Notes under the pieces: generated by a model
Told to the model about the DNA's origin: nothing
Seen by the model: only the letters and a program-made list of their open reading frames with translations
Databases searched by the model: none
Virus record (IMG/VR): IMGVR_UViG_3300045988_015852
DNA: 6,216 nt
Direction: 5' to 3' (one strand)
Source of the DNA: a virus
Translations under genes and position numbers: made by a program
Part shown: piece by piece, positions 1,563 through 6,216 of the stretch
Position numbering within the stretch: the stretch's first letter is position 1
How the letters are laid out: each line of letters opens with the position of its first letter

Positions 1563-2003
1563 ATGAGAAATTTTGCTTATAAAAATCCCGATTATATTAA
1601 AAATGAGGTTGTTCCCGAGTTAATTGAGGATAATCCGTGTTATCAACAGTCTGTATATGATACAGTTATGTATGACGAATCTCTTGATGGTGACTTGATT
1701 CAATGTGATATGACGCAGATTTTGCTGAATCAGGAAAAATATCGCCGGTTACTCGGTGATATGAATGTTCAGAATATTCTTGCTCAAATGCACCCTACTC
1801 AGTCTACTTTCATGGATGGTATGACTGATGAAGAACGTTTTGATTGTGTTATCTCCCGTCATTGTCAGACTATGTCTGAACGTCAGGCTGTTTTACAGCA
1901 GTTGGCTAGTGAGAAGTCTGAACTATCGGCTTATGCCGAATCTATGTTGGCAGAGCAAAAGGCAGCGCCGTCTCCGGATTCCGCATCTGCCTCTCCTGAA
2001 TAA
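1563..2003 (+). CDS. Hypothetical acidic 146-aa protein. Its position between VP1 and VP2 is compatible with a scaffolding-like role, but this is unproven.
   Basis: The ATG lies 11 nt after the VP1 stop. The stop TAA (2001..2003) shares one base with the VP2 ATG (TAATG). Codon style matches the other genes (gct, gtt, tct, gat, tat). The protein is rich in D/E/Q with an Ala/Ser/Pro tail. I recognise no motif. Confidence 0.75.
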   Translation: MRNFAYKNPDYIKNEVVPELIEDNPCYQQSVYDTVMYDESLDGDLIQCDMTQILLNQEKYRRLLGDMNVQNILAQMHPTQSTFMDGMTDEERFDCVISRHCQTMSERQAVLQQLASEKSELSAYAESMLAEQKAAPSPDSASASPE

Positions 2004-3145
2004 TGGGACTATTTGATGCTATAGCTTCCTCGGCTGCAAACCTTACCGACAATGTTGTCGGTATGGTTAATCAGAATCATCAGAATAAGGTTAATCTCCG
2101 TATGATGCGTGAACAGAACGCATTTAACGCAGAGCAGGCTCAGATTCAACGTGATTGGCAGCAACAGATGTGGGGCATGAATAATGCCTACAATTCTCCT
2201 GACGCTATGATTTCTCGTGGTTTGAATCCGTTTGTTCAAGGTTCTGCTGCTATGGCTGGTTCTAGGTCTCCTGCTTCAGGTGGAGCTGCTGCTACTGCTG
2301 CTCCTGTTCCTAGTATGCAGGCCTATAAGCCTAATTTCTCTAGCGTGTTCCAGTCTCTTGCTTCCCTTGCTCAAGCTAAGGCTTCTGAGGCTTCTGCTGG
2401 TGAATCAGGCTCTCGTGCACGTCAGACTGATACGGTAACTCCTCTTTTGTCTGATTATTATAGAGGTCTTACTAACTGGAAGAATCTAGCTATTGGCTCT
2501 TCCGGTTATTGGAATAAGGATACGGGCCGTATATCTGCTGCTTTGGACCAGTCTACTGAGGCTCAGAATTTAAAAAACGCCCAGTTTGCTGAACGTATAT
2601 CTGCTGCTCAAGAAACACAGATTTTGCTTAATTCTGATGCTCAACGTATTATGAATAAATATATGGATCAGAATCAACAGGCTGATTTGTTTATTAAGGC
2701 TCAAACCTTAGTCAATCTTCAGTCCCAAGGTGCTCTTACTGAGAATCAGATGCAGACTGAAATTCAGCGTGCTATTCTTATTGCTGCTGAGGCTTCCGGT
2801 AAGAAAATTGACAATCGTATAGCTTCCGAGACGGCTGATTCTTTGATTAAGGCAGCTAACGCCTCTAATGAATTGCAATATCGTGATAGTACGTATGATT
2901 ATAAGAATGTTAAGCTTCGTAAACATACGGAGTATAAAACTTCTATGGCTAATCAGAAAGCTGCTGAATATGGCGCAGACTTGGCTCGCAAACAAAGCCG
3001 TACTCATTATTGGGAATCTGTTGCTCGTGGTGTTGGTAGTATTGCCTCCGGTGCTGGTAATTTTGTCGGCGCGTTTCGTCCAGGTGCTAATATCTATCGT
3101 AATGATTATGGCCCTCGTAATACTACTATTTATAATGGTCGGTAA
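2003..3145 (+). CDS. VP2: Microviridae minor capsid / DNA pilot protein (VP2; functional analogue of phiX174 H)
   Basis: The N-terminal block REQNAFNAEQAQIQRDWQQQMWGMNNAYNSPDAMISRGLNP (nt about 2108..2230) resembles the conserved VP2 motif of non-phiX microviruses (...N.EF...M.NTAYQR...D...AGLNP). It is followed by an Ala/Ser/Gly-rich low-complexity stretch and a long Q/A/N-rich, probably helical region. It sits directly after the capsid module. Confidence 0.85.
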   Translation: MGLFDAIASSAANLTDNVVGMVNQNHQNKVNLRMMREQNAFNAEQAQIQRDWQQQMWGMNNAYNSPDAMISRGLNPFVQGSAAMAGSRSPASGGAAATAAPVPSMQAYKPNFSSVFQSLASLAQAKASEASAGESGSRARQTDTVTPLLSDYYRGLTNWKNLAIGSSGYWNKDTGRISAALDQSTEAQNLKNAQFAERISAAQETQILLNSDAQRIMNKYMDQNQQADLFIKAQTLVNLQSQGALTENQMQTEIQRAILIAAEASGKKIDNRIASETADSLIKAANASNELQYRDSTYDYKNVKLRKHTEYKTSMANQKAAEYGADLARKQSRTHYWESVARGVGSIASGAGNFVGAFRPGANIYRNDYGPRNTTIYNGR

Positions 3146-3548: not shown

Positions 3549-3743
3549 ATGCAGAAATTTATTATTTCAGTCAAAGAAAAAACTACTGGCCGTGATGTTA
3601 TTTCGCCTTATATCGTTAATTCTCTCGATGGTCTTGGAAATTATTCTGAGCGAGTTTCTTCGCTGGGTCTTATTGTTATTGTGGATTCAATTAAAGAAGA
3701 AAATAATTTTGTTGAACTTAAAACTCAAAGCGATGAAAAGTAA
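3549..3743 (+). CDS. Hypothetical 64-aa protein, orphan accessory ORF
   Basis: First ORF after the candidate promoter. Third codon positions are strongly T-biased, as in the core genes, and this supports it over the overlapping 3592 frame. It ends in a double stop (taa taa). There is no TM segment and no motif I recognise. Confidence 0.6.
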   Translation: MQKFIISVKEKTTGRDVISPYIVNSLDGLGNYSERVSSLGLIVIVDSIKEENNFVELKTQSDEK

Positions 3744-3816
3744 TAATATTTGGAAAATTATTATCGGTGCTGTTTCTGCCGCATTAGGCTATATTCTTAA
3801 TGCTATCGGACTATGA
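3733..3816 (+). CDS. Candidate 27-aa single-pass membrane micro-protein (MKSNNIWKIIIGAVSAALGYILNAIGL), a possible holin-like partner of the downstream peptidase
   Basis: The ATG at 3733 overlaps the end of the 64-aa ORF by 11 nt. Its TGA overlaps the ATG of the M15 gene (ATGA at 3813-3816). It exactly fills what would otherwise be a 69-nt gap in a genome whose other intergenic gaps are -1 to 18 nt. Codons are genome-typical (ggt gct gtt tct gcc). It has a short polar N-terminus followed by about 22 hydrophobic residues. It is very short, so it remains unproven. Confidence 0.4.
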   Translation: MKSNNIWKIIIGAVSAALGYILNAIGL

Positions 3817-4121
3817 ATTATACTCTTATGCATTTCCTTGAGTATCTGCTCTACTCTAATGTTCATTTTTCGGTGACTAGTGCTAGACGTACTCCTGAAC
3901 AGAATAAAGCTGCTGGAGGTGTTCCGAATTCCCAACATCTTGTAGGCGAGGCTGTTGATATCAAACCTTATGGTTCTACTACGTTTAATAATTTGCTCGA
4001 AGCGATTCATTTTTTCTCTGATAATGTTTCGCCATTTGACCAGCTTATTATATATCCGACATTTATTCATGTTTCATTCTGCTCTCGTAATCGTCGGCAG
4101 GTGATAGACAAACGTAAATAA
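3813..4121 (+). CDS. Peptidase M15 family (M15_3 / VanY-like) zinc peptidoglycan peptidase, a putative endolysin of 102 aa
   Basis: VTSARRTPEQNKAAGGVPNSQHLVGEAVDI contains the family signature SxHxxGxAxD (SQHLVGEAVD). The putative Zn ligands are H42 (nt 3936-3938), D49 (3957-3959) and H86 in FIHVS (4068-4070). The preceding S-x-R-R-T-P-x-x-N-x-x-x-G-G block matches the S-G-Y-R-x-P-x-x-N-x-x-x-G-G pattern of this family as I recall it. No signal peptide or TM segment is present. Confidence 0.85.
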   Translation: MNYTLMHFLEYLLYSNVHFSVTSARRTPEQNKAAGGVPNSQHLVGEAVDIKPYGSTTFNNLLEAIHFFSDNVSPFDQLIIYPTFIHVSFCSRNRRQVIDKRK

Positions 4122-4123
4122 TT

Positions 4124-5944
4124 ATGAAATTTTCTCCTGAGTTACTGAAAGCGACTGCCTGTTGCCAGCATCGTTCGTTTATTACTAATCGTTACAACGG
4201 TGCACGTATTGCCGTGGATTGTGGCCAATGCGATTATTGTATCCATAAGCGTGCTCAGAAAGCGTCCATGCGTGTGAAGACCGCTGGAAGTGCCTTTAAG
4301 TATTCTTATTTTGTAACTCTTACGTATGACAACGAACATATTCCTCTTATGAATTGTAAGGTTCTCCACAGTGAATATGAGGACGTTGTAGGTATCTCAG
4401 GAGATATTCATTTTGGTGATGAATATCATAAATATATCCCTGTTTCCGAGTATCGATGTGATGATAACTCCATGCTGCGTCATATTTTCTTCGAACAGGT
4501 TCAAGGCACTGTGCCGTATGACCGTGAAATTAAGGAATATGTACCTGTTAAAGATAATTGGTTTCTTAGTATGGATGCTATTCGTAGTTTTATCTATAAA
4601 ACGCAGTCCGTGGAGAATACGGTATATCCCGCTGCTGAACAATACGGTCTTGGTAACCTTATTCCCTTTTTAAATTATGTTGATGTTCAGAATTATATCA
4701 AACGTTTACGTAAACATTTGTTTCAAAAATTAGGCTCTTATGAAACGTTACATTTCTACGCTGTGGGTGAGTACGGACCCGTGCATTTCCGCCCGCATTA
4801 TCATCTCTTATTATTCACAAACTCGGAAGAAGTCTCCGAGGTTTTACGATACTGTCACGATAAGAGTTGGAGGCTCGGTCGTTCAGATTTCCAACGTGCC
4901 GCTGGTGGAGCTGGTTCGTACGTTGCGAGTTACGTTAACAGCTTGTGCTCTGCTCCCCTCTTATATCGCTCATGCCACGCGTTTAAGCCCAGGTCGCGAG
5001 CATCTGTCGGATTCTTTGAGAAAGGCTGCGATTTCGTGGAAAACGATGATCCTTATGCGCAAATTGAACAAAAAATCGATTCTGTCGTTAACGGACGAGT
5101 CTATAACTTCAATGGTATCAGTGTTCGGTCAACTCCGCCCCTGTCGTATATCCGTACCTTACTCCCCCGATTCTCGTCTGCTCGCAATGACGATGTTGTT
5201 GCGATTGCTCGAATTCTTTGCGCTGTACATTCAACGCCAAAGAGAATTGCGAGATTCGGATTTGTTGACTACAAACAGGATTCAATCTTGAGTCTTGTCC
5301 GCACTTATTATCAATATCTTAAGGCCAATTCTATTCTTACTGATGATGACAAGATTATATTACATGCTTCTCGGTGTCTTACTAGGTTTGTTAACTGTTC
5401 TAGTGATGTCGATATTGAATCTTATATTAATAAGCTATATCGGCTGTTCTTATATGTCTATAAGTTCTTCCGGAATTGGCATTTGCCTCTCTTCGGCTCT
5501 GATATTAGTGCTTACTCCGGTCGTATTATGTTTATCATTAAAACAGGTATAGAATATGAGAAGAAAACGGATTATGTACGAATGTGTGATTCGTTGCGAA
5601 TACAACAGACTTTGCCAGCCCCTATGCTTCGGTATTTCTATTTACCAGCCGAAGGATGCGAAATGGCAACCATTGGTATCGGTGAGGACGGAGAATATGC
5701 AGACGGATTTATTCGTCCCGTTAAAGAACAAATACGAGTTCCGTTTGATGACCCCAGAATCCCACCTCTCGCGTCTTGTAATTACATCAAATCTGCGAAG
5801 CCCGATACAAGAAGTGCCTATGATAGTGGGCAAAGTAGCGACTTACAAAAATGTCTTGATTTCCGTGCTGCTACCTTCTGTCGTGATATGATTAAGCATA
5901 AGAAGCTTAATGATGCTAATAATATTTTCAACCGTATGGTTTAA
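4124..5944 (+). CDS. VP4: Rolling-circle replication initiator, HUH endonuclease (VP4; phiX174 gpA family)
   Basis: Motif 1 is FVTLTY (aa 63-68). The HUH motif is H-Y-H-LLLF (aa 225-227, nt 4796-4804). The two-tyrosine motif YVASYVNS (Y266/Y270, nt 4919-4933) is nearly identical to phiX174 gpA YVAKYVNK. The N-terminal cysteine cluster CGQCDYC is typical of microvirus Rep proteins. Confidence 0.95.
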   Translation: MKFSPELLKATACCQHRSFITNRYNGARIAVDCGQCDYCIHKRAQKASMRVKTAGSAFKYSYFVTLTYDNEHIPLMNCKVLHSEYEDVVGISGDIHFGDEYHKYIPVSEYRCDDNSMLRHIFFEQVQGTVPYDREIKEYVPVKDNWFLSMDAIRSFIYKTQSVENTVYPAAEQYGLGNLIPFLNYVDVQNYIKRLRKHLFQKLGSYETLHFYAVGEYGPVHFRPHYHLLLFTNSEEVSEVLRYCHDKSWRLGRSDFQRAAGGAGSYVASYVNSLCSAPLLYRSCHAFKPRSRASVGFFEKGCDFVENDDPYAQIEQKIDSVVNGRVYNFNGISVRSTPPLSYIRTLLPRFSSARNDDVVAIARILCAVHSTPKRIARFGFVDYKQDSILSLVRTYYQYLKANSILTDDDKIILHASRCLTRFVNCSSDVDIESYINKLYRLFLYVYKFFRNWHLPLFGSDISAYSGRIMFIIKTGIEYEKKTDYVRMCDSLRIQQTLPAPMLRYFYLPAEGCEMATIGIGEDGEYADGFIRPVKEQIRVPFDDPRIPPLASCNYIKSAKPDTRSAYDSGQSSDLQKCLDFRAATFCRDMIKHKKLNDANNIFNRMV

Positions 5945-5962
5945 TTTAAATATTAATTAATT

Positions 5963-6216
5963 ATGAGTGATTTTAATCCTTTGGACCGTGCTAAGATTCC
6001 TACCCATCGGTCTTCTTTCGACTTAAGTTCGAAAAAATTGTTTACAGCTAAAGTAGGTGAAATTCTTCCTTGCTATTGGCAGATTGCTATTCCCGATACG
6101 AAGTATCGTATTTCCTCTGACTGGTTTACCCGTACTGTTCCGGTTAATACGGCTGCTTATACTCGTATTAAGGAGTATTATGACTTCTACGCTGTGCCGT
6201 TACGTTTGATTTCTCG
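5963..6216 (+). CDS. VP1: Major capsid protein VP1, N-terminal part, running off the window end and continuing at 1..1551
   Basis: The ATG at 5963 lies 18 nt after the Rep stop. Translation: MSDFNPLDRAKIPTHRSSFDLSSKKLFTAKVGEILPCYWQIAIPDTKYRISSDWFTRTVPVNTAAYTRIKEYYDFYAVPLRLIS. The last 77 nt duplicate 1..77. Confidence 0.93.
   Translation, partial: MSDFNPLDRAKIPTHRSSFDLSSKKLFTAKVGEILPCYWQIAIPDTKYRISSDWFTRTVPVNTAAYTRIKEYYDFYAVPLRLIS
6140..6216. repeat. Terminal redundancy of a circular assembly, identical to 1..77
   Basis: Exact 77-nt identity with the window start. Confidence 0.97.

Follow-up and report, generated by a model that had tools for sequence, protein, structure and literature searches.

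The window, that is, the whole 6216-nt stretch of DNA that was analysed, represents a complete microvirus genome with all listed genes on the plus strand (Table 1). Downstream of the pilot protein gene, ORF64 is followed by a 27-codon micro-ORF and by a gene for an M15_3 peptidase, each overlapping the next. Neither a phiX E-type gene nor a further lysin could be detected in the window with Pfam and PHROG, and ORF64 itself had no match in either database.

Table 1. Genes and overlaps along the microvirus genome.
Feature	Coordinates	Strand	Remarks
Major capsid protein	5963-6216 -> 1-1551 (wraps)	+	Pfam Phage_F
146-aa ORF	1563-2003	+	
Pilot protein	2003-3145	+	
Mostly non-coding stretch between pilot protein and ORF64			
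ORF64, soluble 64-aa protein, function unassigned	3549-3743	+	TAA stop at 3741-3743
Candidate 73-aa long form in the micro-ORF frame, +1 overprint on ORF64 codons 16-64, begins MLFRLISLILSMVLEIILSEFLRWVLLLLWIQLKKKIILLNLKLKAM	3595-3816	+	
ORF64/micro-ORF overlap, ATGAAAAGTAA	3733-3743	+	micro-ORF ATG 8 nt before ORF64 stop; termination-reinitiation geometry
Micro-ORF, 27 codons, predicted single-helix membrane peptide, MKSNNIWKIIIGAVSAALGYILNAIGL	3733-3816	+	translation
ATGA, formed by peptidase ATG (3813) and micro-ORF TGA (3814-3816)	3813-3816	+	
Peptidase_M15_3, 102 aa, candidate endolysin	3813-4121	+	Pfam PF08291, PHROG 894
Rep	4124-5944	+	

A first-pass annotation of the same DNA had proposed the micro-ORF as a 27-aa frame coupled to both neighbors, and inspection of the sequence bore out this layout. 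The frame translates as MKSNNIWKIIIGAVSAALGYILNAIGL*, its ATG lies within an 11-nt overlap with the end of ORF64, its stop shares ATGA with the peptidase start, and it fills the 69-nt gap (3744-3812) between ORF64 and the peptidase. The TAATG cited from positions 2001-2005 as an overlap of the same style is also present.

The polar N-terminus and following hydrophobic stretch described for the peptide were likewise found. The N-terminus carries K2 and K8, and residues 9-27 have a mean Kyte-Doolittle hydropathy of 2.03, above the usual membrane-span threshold of 1.6 on this scale. The transmembrane domain characteristic of holins is therefore predicted for this 19-residue stretch. As K2 and K8 are the sole charged residues, the product is probably a single-pass inner-membrane peptide with its N-terminus inside. 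Small or polar residues (K8, G12, S15, G19, N23 and G26) recur every 3-4 positions and form a stripe on one helix face. The peptide ends (...NAIGL*) within the hydrophobic segment, and the highly charged hydrophilic C-terminal tail that is a hallmark of holins is absent.

Conservation and coding status of the micro-ORF

IMG/VR was queried with the peptidase, which yielded 65 loci, 59 of them usable, with peptidase identities of 61-97%. All 59 relatives contain a 26-28-codon ORF whose stop overlaps the peptidase start, the ATGA overlap being kept in the listed relatives and taking the form GTGA in L038 and L047. Across a 23-codon core of the micro-ORF in these relatives, entropy at the first, second and third codon positions was 0.218, 0.011 and 0.739, and residues were fixed despite the use of each of the four Gly codons and of both families of Leu codons. 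The Nei-Gojobori dN/dS of this core was 0.050 at a dS of 0.63 over the 59 genomes, while reading these nucleotides in the two alternative frames gave 1.24 and 6.5. The peptidase gave 0.188 in the same comparison, and the peptide is therefore under tighter constraint than the enzyme. On these patterns of substitution we consider it at least nearly certain that the micro-ORF is a real coding gene.

Similar peptides were found in more distant genomes. Microvirus mar56, whose peptidase is 49% identical, encodes MKRNWIKILIGAVSAALGYVLNSLGL, also with ATGA, and Dulem viruses 238, 226 and 243 encode ...RIIIGAVSAALGYVLNSLGL; the ending ...IGAVSAALGYVLNSLGL* is retained in all four. A positional analogue of 29 aa, MKSETKSKIWSAIIAAAVSLLTSIAQIFS, occurs in clade B, which comprises bajarodmic viruses 410 and 1134, Dulem viruses 236 and 257 and IMG/VR loci L076-L082, and this ORF has a dN/dS of 0.050 versus 1.6-2.0 in the other frames. 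Comparison of the clade A and clade B peptides by hhalign gave a probability of 29%, at which homology is not established. The stop of the upstream gene lies 5-11 nt 3' of the micro-ORF ATG in 58 of 58 clade-A loci and exactly 8 nt after the peptide ATG in 11 of 11 clade-B loci, and the same spacing recurs in mar56 and Dulem virus 238, the usual value overall being 8 nt. A spacing of 5-11 nt is the geometry expected of termination-restart. The methionine that starts the short form is kept in all lineages except L111, in which the start codon is GTG.

A short frame below gene-finder limits, in an AT-rich genome with T-rich third codon positions (T3) where hydrophobic ORFs are common, could in principle be a chance ORF in an intergenic spacer that is conserved merely as DNA or RNA. 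The substitution pattern refutes this reading, to which we assign almost no probability: variation is confined to third codon positions, residues stay fixed across differing codons, and the low dN/dS is found in two independent clades.

The 27-, 29- and 73-aa forms had no match in Pfam, PHROG or NCBIfam, holin families included, even at E<=10, and the peptide showed no similarity to E, L or LysM in Pfam and PHROG. Four peptide variants run through hmmscan with Pfam and NCBIfam, likewise at E<=10, gave no match to the Bacteroidales 'smalltalk'/DUF6486 small proteins. A scan for GA[VI]SAALGY over 185,579 species genomes identified no relative, and neither the peptide nor the peptidase was found as a prophage or cellular copy in this set of one genome per species. 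A profile search of 1.84 billion representative proteins identified 24 clusters at 50% identity only, and those inspected all represent the same reading frame from microvirus-like sequence. As judged by these searches, the peptide family is narrow.

Gene finders usually require at least 90 nt, and the micro-ORF, at 84 nt, falls below this minimum. The peptide occurs in 35 GenBank phage records, none of which annotates it as a CDS, and the peptidase CDS of Dulem viruses 238, 226 and 243 has been stretched across it in the wrong frame. The gene has been missed in annotation and, in these three virus species, absorbed into an over-extended peptidase CDS. We found no published description of the peptide.

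The upstream frame overprinted on ORF64

The initial description of a 27-aa ORF was correct but incomplete, as the open frame extends upstream as far as an ATG at 3595 and gives a 73-aa form consisting of MLFRLISLILSMVLEIILSEFLRWVLLLLWIQLKKKIILLNLKLKA followed by the 27 residues. The long-form ATG is conserved in 72 of 73 distinct sequences, and the frame is free of stops in 72 of 73. When ORF64 codons were redrawn synonymously from genome usage, the frame stayed stop-free in 1.3% of trials. Gene finders have called this frame, at 73-74 aa, in 220 database protein clusters, all labeled 'hypothetical' and none with a Pfam domain.

Synonymous variation in ORF64 points to the same frame. Third-position entropy, measured at amino-acid-conserved degenerate codons, was 0.331 in ORF64 codons 16-61 (11 of 32 invariant). 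The corresponding values were 0.655 for ORF64 codons 1-15 (Mann-Whitney p = 0.007), 0.733 for the micro-ORF (p = 6e-4) and 0.765 for the peptidase (1 of 58 invariant; p = 2e-6). The comparison sequences share ancestry; as every segment derives from one set of genomes, the contrast is fair provided that the segments do not differ in recombination. The suppression peaks in ORF64 codons 16-48, which correspond to long-form residues 1-33, and relaxes in the KKK-linker region, and it is therefore not an effect of the short-form initiation region. ORF64 codon 19 encodes Pro, Ser or Ala, yet the Arg read there in the +1 frame never changes; two Trp residues of the +1 frame are also nearly fixed, occurring in 73/73 and 72/73 sequences. 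An RNA or ssDNA fold as the source of the suppression was unsupported (z = 0.51 and -0.44).

Position 2 of the micro-ORF frame is position 3 of ORF64, and the open upstream frame was also considered as a by-product of T-ending ORF64 codons. This view was rejected because of the outcome of the synonymous recoding, the suppression in codons 16-48 and the equal T3 content of ORF64 and the peptidase (0.56 in both). ORF64 accompanies the peptide in 34 GenBank records, and its codons 1-15 show a coding pattern of their own with a dN/dS of 0.14. ORF64 is probably the upstream partner in translational coupling and probably dual-coding from codon 16 onward.

Holins are usually about 60-145 aa long, a range that includes the 73-aa form and lies far above the 27-aa form. 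Because the frame from ATG 3595 is conserved and the synonymous variation of ORF64 is halved there, the product may be holin-sized rather than minimal. AlphaFold2 models of 33 long forms showed one continuous helix (pLDDT 88, pTM 0.45) and were uninformative on topology.

The evidence for the long form also bears on whether the 27-aa form is a separate product. If only the 73-aa protein from ATG 3595 to 3816 were made, the 27-aa stretch would be its non-overlapped C-terminal helix, and the gene would encode a membrane protein of ordinary size containing two or three hydrophobic segments, which is compatible with a role in lysis. Such a protein would account for the conserved and open frame, which is improbable under synonymous recoding, for the loss of synonymous variation and the behavior of codon 19 in ORF64, a constraint that folding of RNA or DNA does not explain, and for the 73-74-aa clusters in databases. 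However, the upstream frame stops 13 and 20 codons before the micro-ORF ATG in L075 and L076 of clade B, and this clade has no conserved upstream ATG, yet its 29-aa ORF is under the strong purifying selection described above. The short-form Met, kept everywhere but L111, also always lies 5-11 nt before the upstream stop, and across these genomes +1 frames are hydrophobic and often open owing to T-rich third positions. We therefore regard exclusive production of the 73-aa protein as rather unlikely, whereas the presence of both the 73-aa and the 27-aa forms in this clade is plausible from the sequence comparisons.

The neighboring peptidase and genomes without it

The gene downstream of the micro-ORF matches PF08291 with 37.9 bits (cut-off 23.2) and the endolysin family PHROG 894 at 1.6e-15, and it contains the M15_3 zinc-ligand pattern H-x6-D ... 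H as SQHLVGEAVD...FIHV. The protein begins MNYTLMHFLEYLLYSNVHF, without a signal sequence or hydrophobic anchor, and the N-terminal SAR domain needed for a pinholin/SAR-endolysin system is absent. It shares 39% identity with the core of the M15 peptidase of Bacteroides phage phiHBP1 with about 33 N-terminal residues missing, and the N-terminal third of the M15_3 domain is missing. The microviral M15_3 protein of human-associated Microviridae has been proposed to be a horizontally acquired endolysin, with no membrane partner named for it (Roux et al. 2012, PMC3394797), and the neighboring gene here is of that kind.

A degenerate DNA pattern for GA[VI]SAALGY identified more than 111 IMG/VR stretches, and pooling these with the earlier loci gave 114 distinct peptide loci. 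The M15 peptidase lies directly downstream in 106 of them (93%), overlapping the peptide gene in nearly all, so that the adjacency to an endolysin gene that is characteristic of holins was observed both in the window, with its ATGA overlap, and in most relatives. The remaining eight loci (L084, L114, L123, L128, L130, L142, L150 and L155) have no peptidase anywhere on the contig. Seven of these, for which ORFs were listed, have the order ORF64, peptide (...SAIGV*), an AT-rich spacer of about 50 nt and Rep, with no ORF of at least 50 aa outside the core genes as a possible lysin. Three of the peptidase-less contigs are complete circles, as indicated by terminal repeats of 55-99 nt. Purifying selection on the peptide persists in these eight genomes (dN/dS 0.086), and retention of the peptide without the peptidase indicates that enzyme export is not its sole role. 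In a quick Rep tree the peptidase-less genomes were scattered among peptidase-bearing ones, with weak support and recombination likely.

Phage phiHBP1 encodes a full-length M15 protein after Rep and has no counterpart of the peptide. L065, a dsDNA-phage contig from IMG/VR, has the same layout as the present locus: a 205-aa ORF with multiple transmembrane segments overlaps a 144-aa M15_3 gene by ATGA.

Possible functions of the peptide

The cassette of the tailed phage on L065 resembles the locus described here in that a membrane-protein gene directly precedes a leaderless M15_3 gene with an ATGA overlap, and in a cassette of this type a membrane lesion is expected to let the cytoplasmic wall hydrolase out. 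The two differ in the size of the membrane protein (27 or 73 aa here versus 205 aa), which shows no sequence similarity, and holin-endolysin cassettes of this type further differ from the present locus in that the peptide has no charged tail, spanin genes are absent, and the peptide is kept without an endolysin. Pinholin S21-68 with its dual-start antiholin S21-71, and lambda S105/S107, are closer in size to the 73-aa form (68-107 aa), share small-residue helix-packing motifs, and suggest how two in-frame starts could give two products of one gene. The starts are 46 codons apart here rather than 2-3, however, and the likeness is one of analogy only; pinholins also pair with SAR endolysins, whereas the peptidase here has no N-terminal anchor.

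Membrane peptides of about this length are known from other systems. Membrane-depolarising bacterial type I toxins include TisB (29 aa), DinQ (27 aa) and the Hok family, and P10 of phi6 (42 aa) is required together with the P5 lysin. These examples show that a single helix of 27-42 residues can collapse the membrane potential or support phage lysis, but their sequences are unrelated to the peptide, and the type I toxins are encoded on chromosomes and do not serve as lysis genes of phages. Among proteins that lyse the host alone, phiX174 E has 91 aa, MS2 L 75 aa and phage M Lys (LysM) 37 aa. Protein E blocks MraY, and Lys of phage M is a single-gene lysis (Sgl) protein inhibiting MurJ (PMC10614894; bioRxiv 10.1101/2022.01.20.477139). 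The peptide shares with Sgl proteins a tiny one-helix membrane protein in a minimal genome, a long form overprinted on another gene, and the position of sole lysis candidate in the peptidase-less relatives; it differs in showing no homology to them and in that most genomes here also carry a translationally coupled muralytic enzyme. Overall, the predicted product is most like a holin or a single-gene lysis protein, although it lacks two holin features, namely the charged tail and membership of a known family.

The first-pass annotation had proposed a minimal holin. A real gene, a single hydrophobic helix, coupling at both ends and a neighboring M15_3 gene in most genomes sustain part of this proposal, whereas the retention of the peptide in the eight peptidase-less genomes, the lack of a holin family and of a charged tail, and the possible 73-aa product do not fit it. 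We slightly favor the broader view that the peptide, in one or both forms, is a membrane-permeabilising lysis effector, and the micro-ORF peptide is the best candidate for how these phages open the host. Ribosomes ending ORF64 would probably restart at the ATG 8 nt upstream of its stop to make the short form, and those finishing the peptide would restart on the peptidase at ATGA. The same frame would probably also be translated from ATG 3595 into a 73-aa membrane protein over ORF64. The peptide could accumulate in the cytoplasmic membrane, self-associate through its Gly/Ser/Asn stripe and, late in infection, permeabilise or depolarise the membrane. In the phage analysed here the leaderless M15 peptidase would thereby reach the cell wall in a holin-like manner, and in the peptidase-less relatives the peptide would lyse without a phage enzyme, through host autolysins or a block of wall synthesis, in an Sgl-like manner.

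The position directly upstream of an endolysin-type gene in 106 of 114 genomes, the parallel with the L065 layout, and the constraint on the peptide in peptidase-less genomes that offer no other lysis candidate all argue for a lysis effector. The absence of homology to holin, Sgl or other families in Pfam, PHROGs and NCBIfam, the narrowness of the family in the profile search, the absence of the holin tail and the lack of a counterpart in other M15-bearing microviruses such as phiHBP1 argue against it; AlphaFold predicts a single featureless helix, and retention without the peptidase could mean that enzyme export is not the peptide's role at all. The near-invariance of the helix could just as well result from binding to a membrane protein of the host. 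A rival reading is an amurin-type effector for single-gene lysis, in which the helix, in the manner of phiX174 E and phage M Lys, would bind and block a conserved membrane enzyme of the host that supplies cell-wall precursors, such as MraY or MurJ, and M15 would be an optional accelerator. Amurins are found in genomes without a muralytic enzyme; the window encodes M15 and eight related genomes have no such enzyme, yet keep the peptide. A helix more conserved than the peptidase (dN/dS 0.05 vs 0.19) would be in keeping with one specific protein target, the long form resembles E in overprinting another gene, and Sgl proteins can be very small. We nevertheless find this version doubtful, as the peptide has no similarity to E, L or LysM, its tight pairing with a muralytic enzyme in 93% of genomes would be needless for an amurin, and the sequence allows no inference of a target.

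A role outside lysis, such as superinfection exclusion, blocking of a host membrane defence or transporter, or anchoring of replication or assembly at the membrane, would fit the independence of the peptide from the peptidase and its place in a promoter-proximal accessory block with ORF64, which always accompanies it, and nothing ties the peptide directly to lysis. But these phages must lyse, no other lysis gene candidate was seen, least of all in the peptidase-less genomes, and a role of this kind would not explain why start and stop are so tightly coupled to an endolysin-type gene in 93% of genomes; it appears improbable. Far less probable is that ribosomal frameshifting or readthrough joins the helix to the peptidase to form a membrane-tethered SAR-type endolysin. 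Like SAR anchors, the helix contains much Gly, Ala and Ser, and four clade-B genomes have the ORF in frame with the peptidase with a single stop between. The distance from stop to peptidase ATG in clade B is, however, -6, -12, -19, -24 or -35 nt, and the frame relation is therefore not conserved. Clade A has no slippery sequence and shows free variation at the wobble bases preceding ATGA, the peptide is retained in genomes that lack a peptidase, and no consistent fused protein occurs among the 1.84 billion representatives, where the few proteins beginning with the peptide diverge at differing points and look like assembly chimeras. The varying distances, the lack of a slippery site and the lack of a consistent fusion effectively refute a fusion.

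A more specific form of the lysis-effector proposal, which we advance tentatively and consider unlikely as a whole, is that two starts in one ORF64-overprinted frame give 73-aa and 27-aa forms that constitute a core, enzyme-independent lysis system of the holin/antiholin kind, with M15 as an optional addition. If true, a very common clade of gut microviruses, probably infecting Bacteroidota, would possess a two-form system whose 27-aa product would be smaller than any other known lysis membrane protein.

Next to nothing is known about how microviruses other than phiX174 lyse their hosts. For the present group of gut phages with single-stranded DNA, which is common and ranks with the most abundant phages of mammals, the nearly invariant helix of 27 residues, found with or without a wall enzyme, provides a concrete lysis candidate. 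If the peptide kills alone, either no smaller phage membrane-lesion protein is known, or it is a new 'protein antibiotic' whose target is conserved in Bacteroidota.

Flanking genes and variant ends of the micro-ORF

Of the 35 GenBank records containing the membrane peptide, 34 also have ORF64, the gene for a soluble protein upstream of the 27-codon micro-ORF. ORF64 has no family match. Its C-terminal codons are fixed as ...DEK* across clades, apparently because the same nucleotides encode the start of the peptide, MKS. Variation at this junction is seen in the IMG/VR locus L111, where the micro-ORF begins with GTG rather than ATG (VKSSHFWK...) and an upstream ATG is kept, giving a 68-aa form.

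At the other end of the micro-ORF, the ATGA overlap with the peptidase start forces a terminal Leu in the peptide. The last residue in genomes that carry the peptide without the peptidase is not Leu but Val (Gly in L128). In these peptidase-less genomes the place that the peptidase would occupy is taken by an AT-rich spacer (TGATTGATTTTATT...), conserved and some 50 nt long, and their Rep comprises 559 aa (L084, L114, L123 and the others listed) versus 606 aa in the window. The overlap is also missing from the IMG/VR locus L109, in which the peptidase match begins 32 nt past the peptide stop.

Coordinates of the genes and reading frames compared
Feature	Sequence	Position	Strand
ORF64	window	3549-3743	+
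Peptidase	window	3813-4121	+
183-aa ATG ORF within Rep, +1 frame	window	4740-5291	+
Peptidase CDS as annotated	Dulem virus 238 (L068, GenBank PP511332)	1438-1812	
Peptidase CDS as annotated	Dulem virus 226 (L069, GenBank PP511396)	1438-1812	
Peptidase CDS as annotated	Dulem virus 243 (L070, GenBank PP511322)	1438-1812	
Region of differing gene order	Bacteroides phage phiHBP1 (L181, PV598014)	84-654	-

Peptidase domain and comparison with phiHBP1

The window peptidase lacks approximately 33 N-terminal residues found in full-length M15 enzymes. Its Pfam match spans profile positions 43-94 of 108, and its residue 21 aligns with residue 54 of the enzyme from phiHBP1, the only cultured Bacteroides microvirus. 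In phiHBP1, Rep, a 54-aa soluble ORF and a 134-aa M15 peptidase follow one another in that order, which differs from the layout of the window. The phage carries no membrane-peptide homologue, and its 54-aa ORF showed no BLASTP similarity to ORF64.

Overlapping frames, composite proteins and database annotation

The +1-frame ORF within Rep is also open in all seven listed peptidase-less relatives (175-183 aa). Since its sequence changes between genomes are non-conservative, T-ending codons are probably what keeps this frame open. Five database proteins (P0143, P0148, P0149, P0150 and P0153) carry the peptide at their N-terminus followed by unrelated sequence, with switch points that differ, after ...GYIL; P0153 (128 aa) runs on into unrelated soluble sequence. 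These entries probably represent contig chimeras or recombination junctions.

Finally, the annotated peptidase CDS of Dulem viruses 238, 226 and 243 starts 63 nt too early, and the extra 5' part crosses the micro-ORF in another frame (MENHHWCCLCC...). This early start is an annotation artefact that masks the peptide gene.
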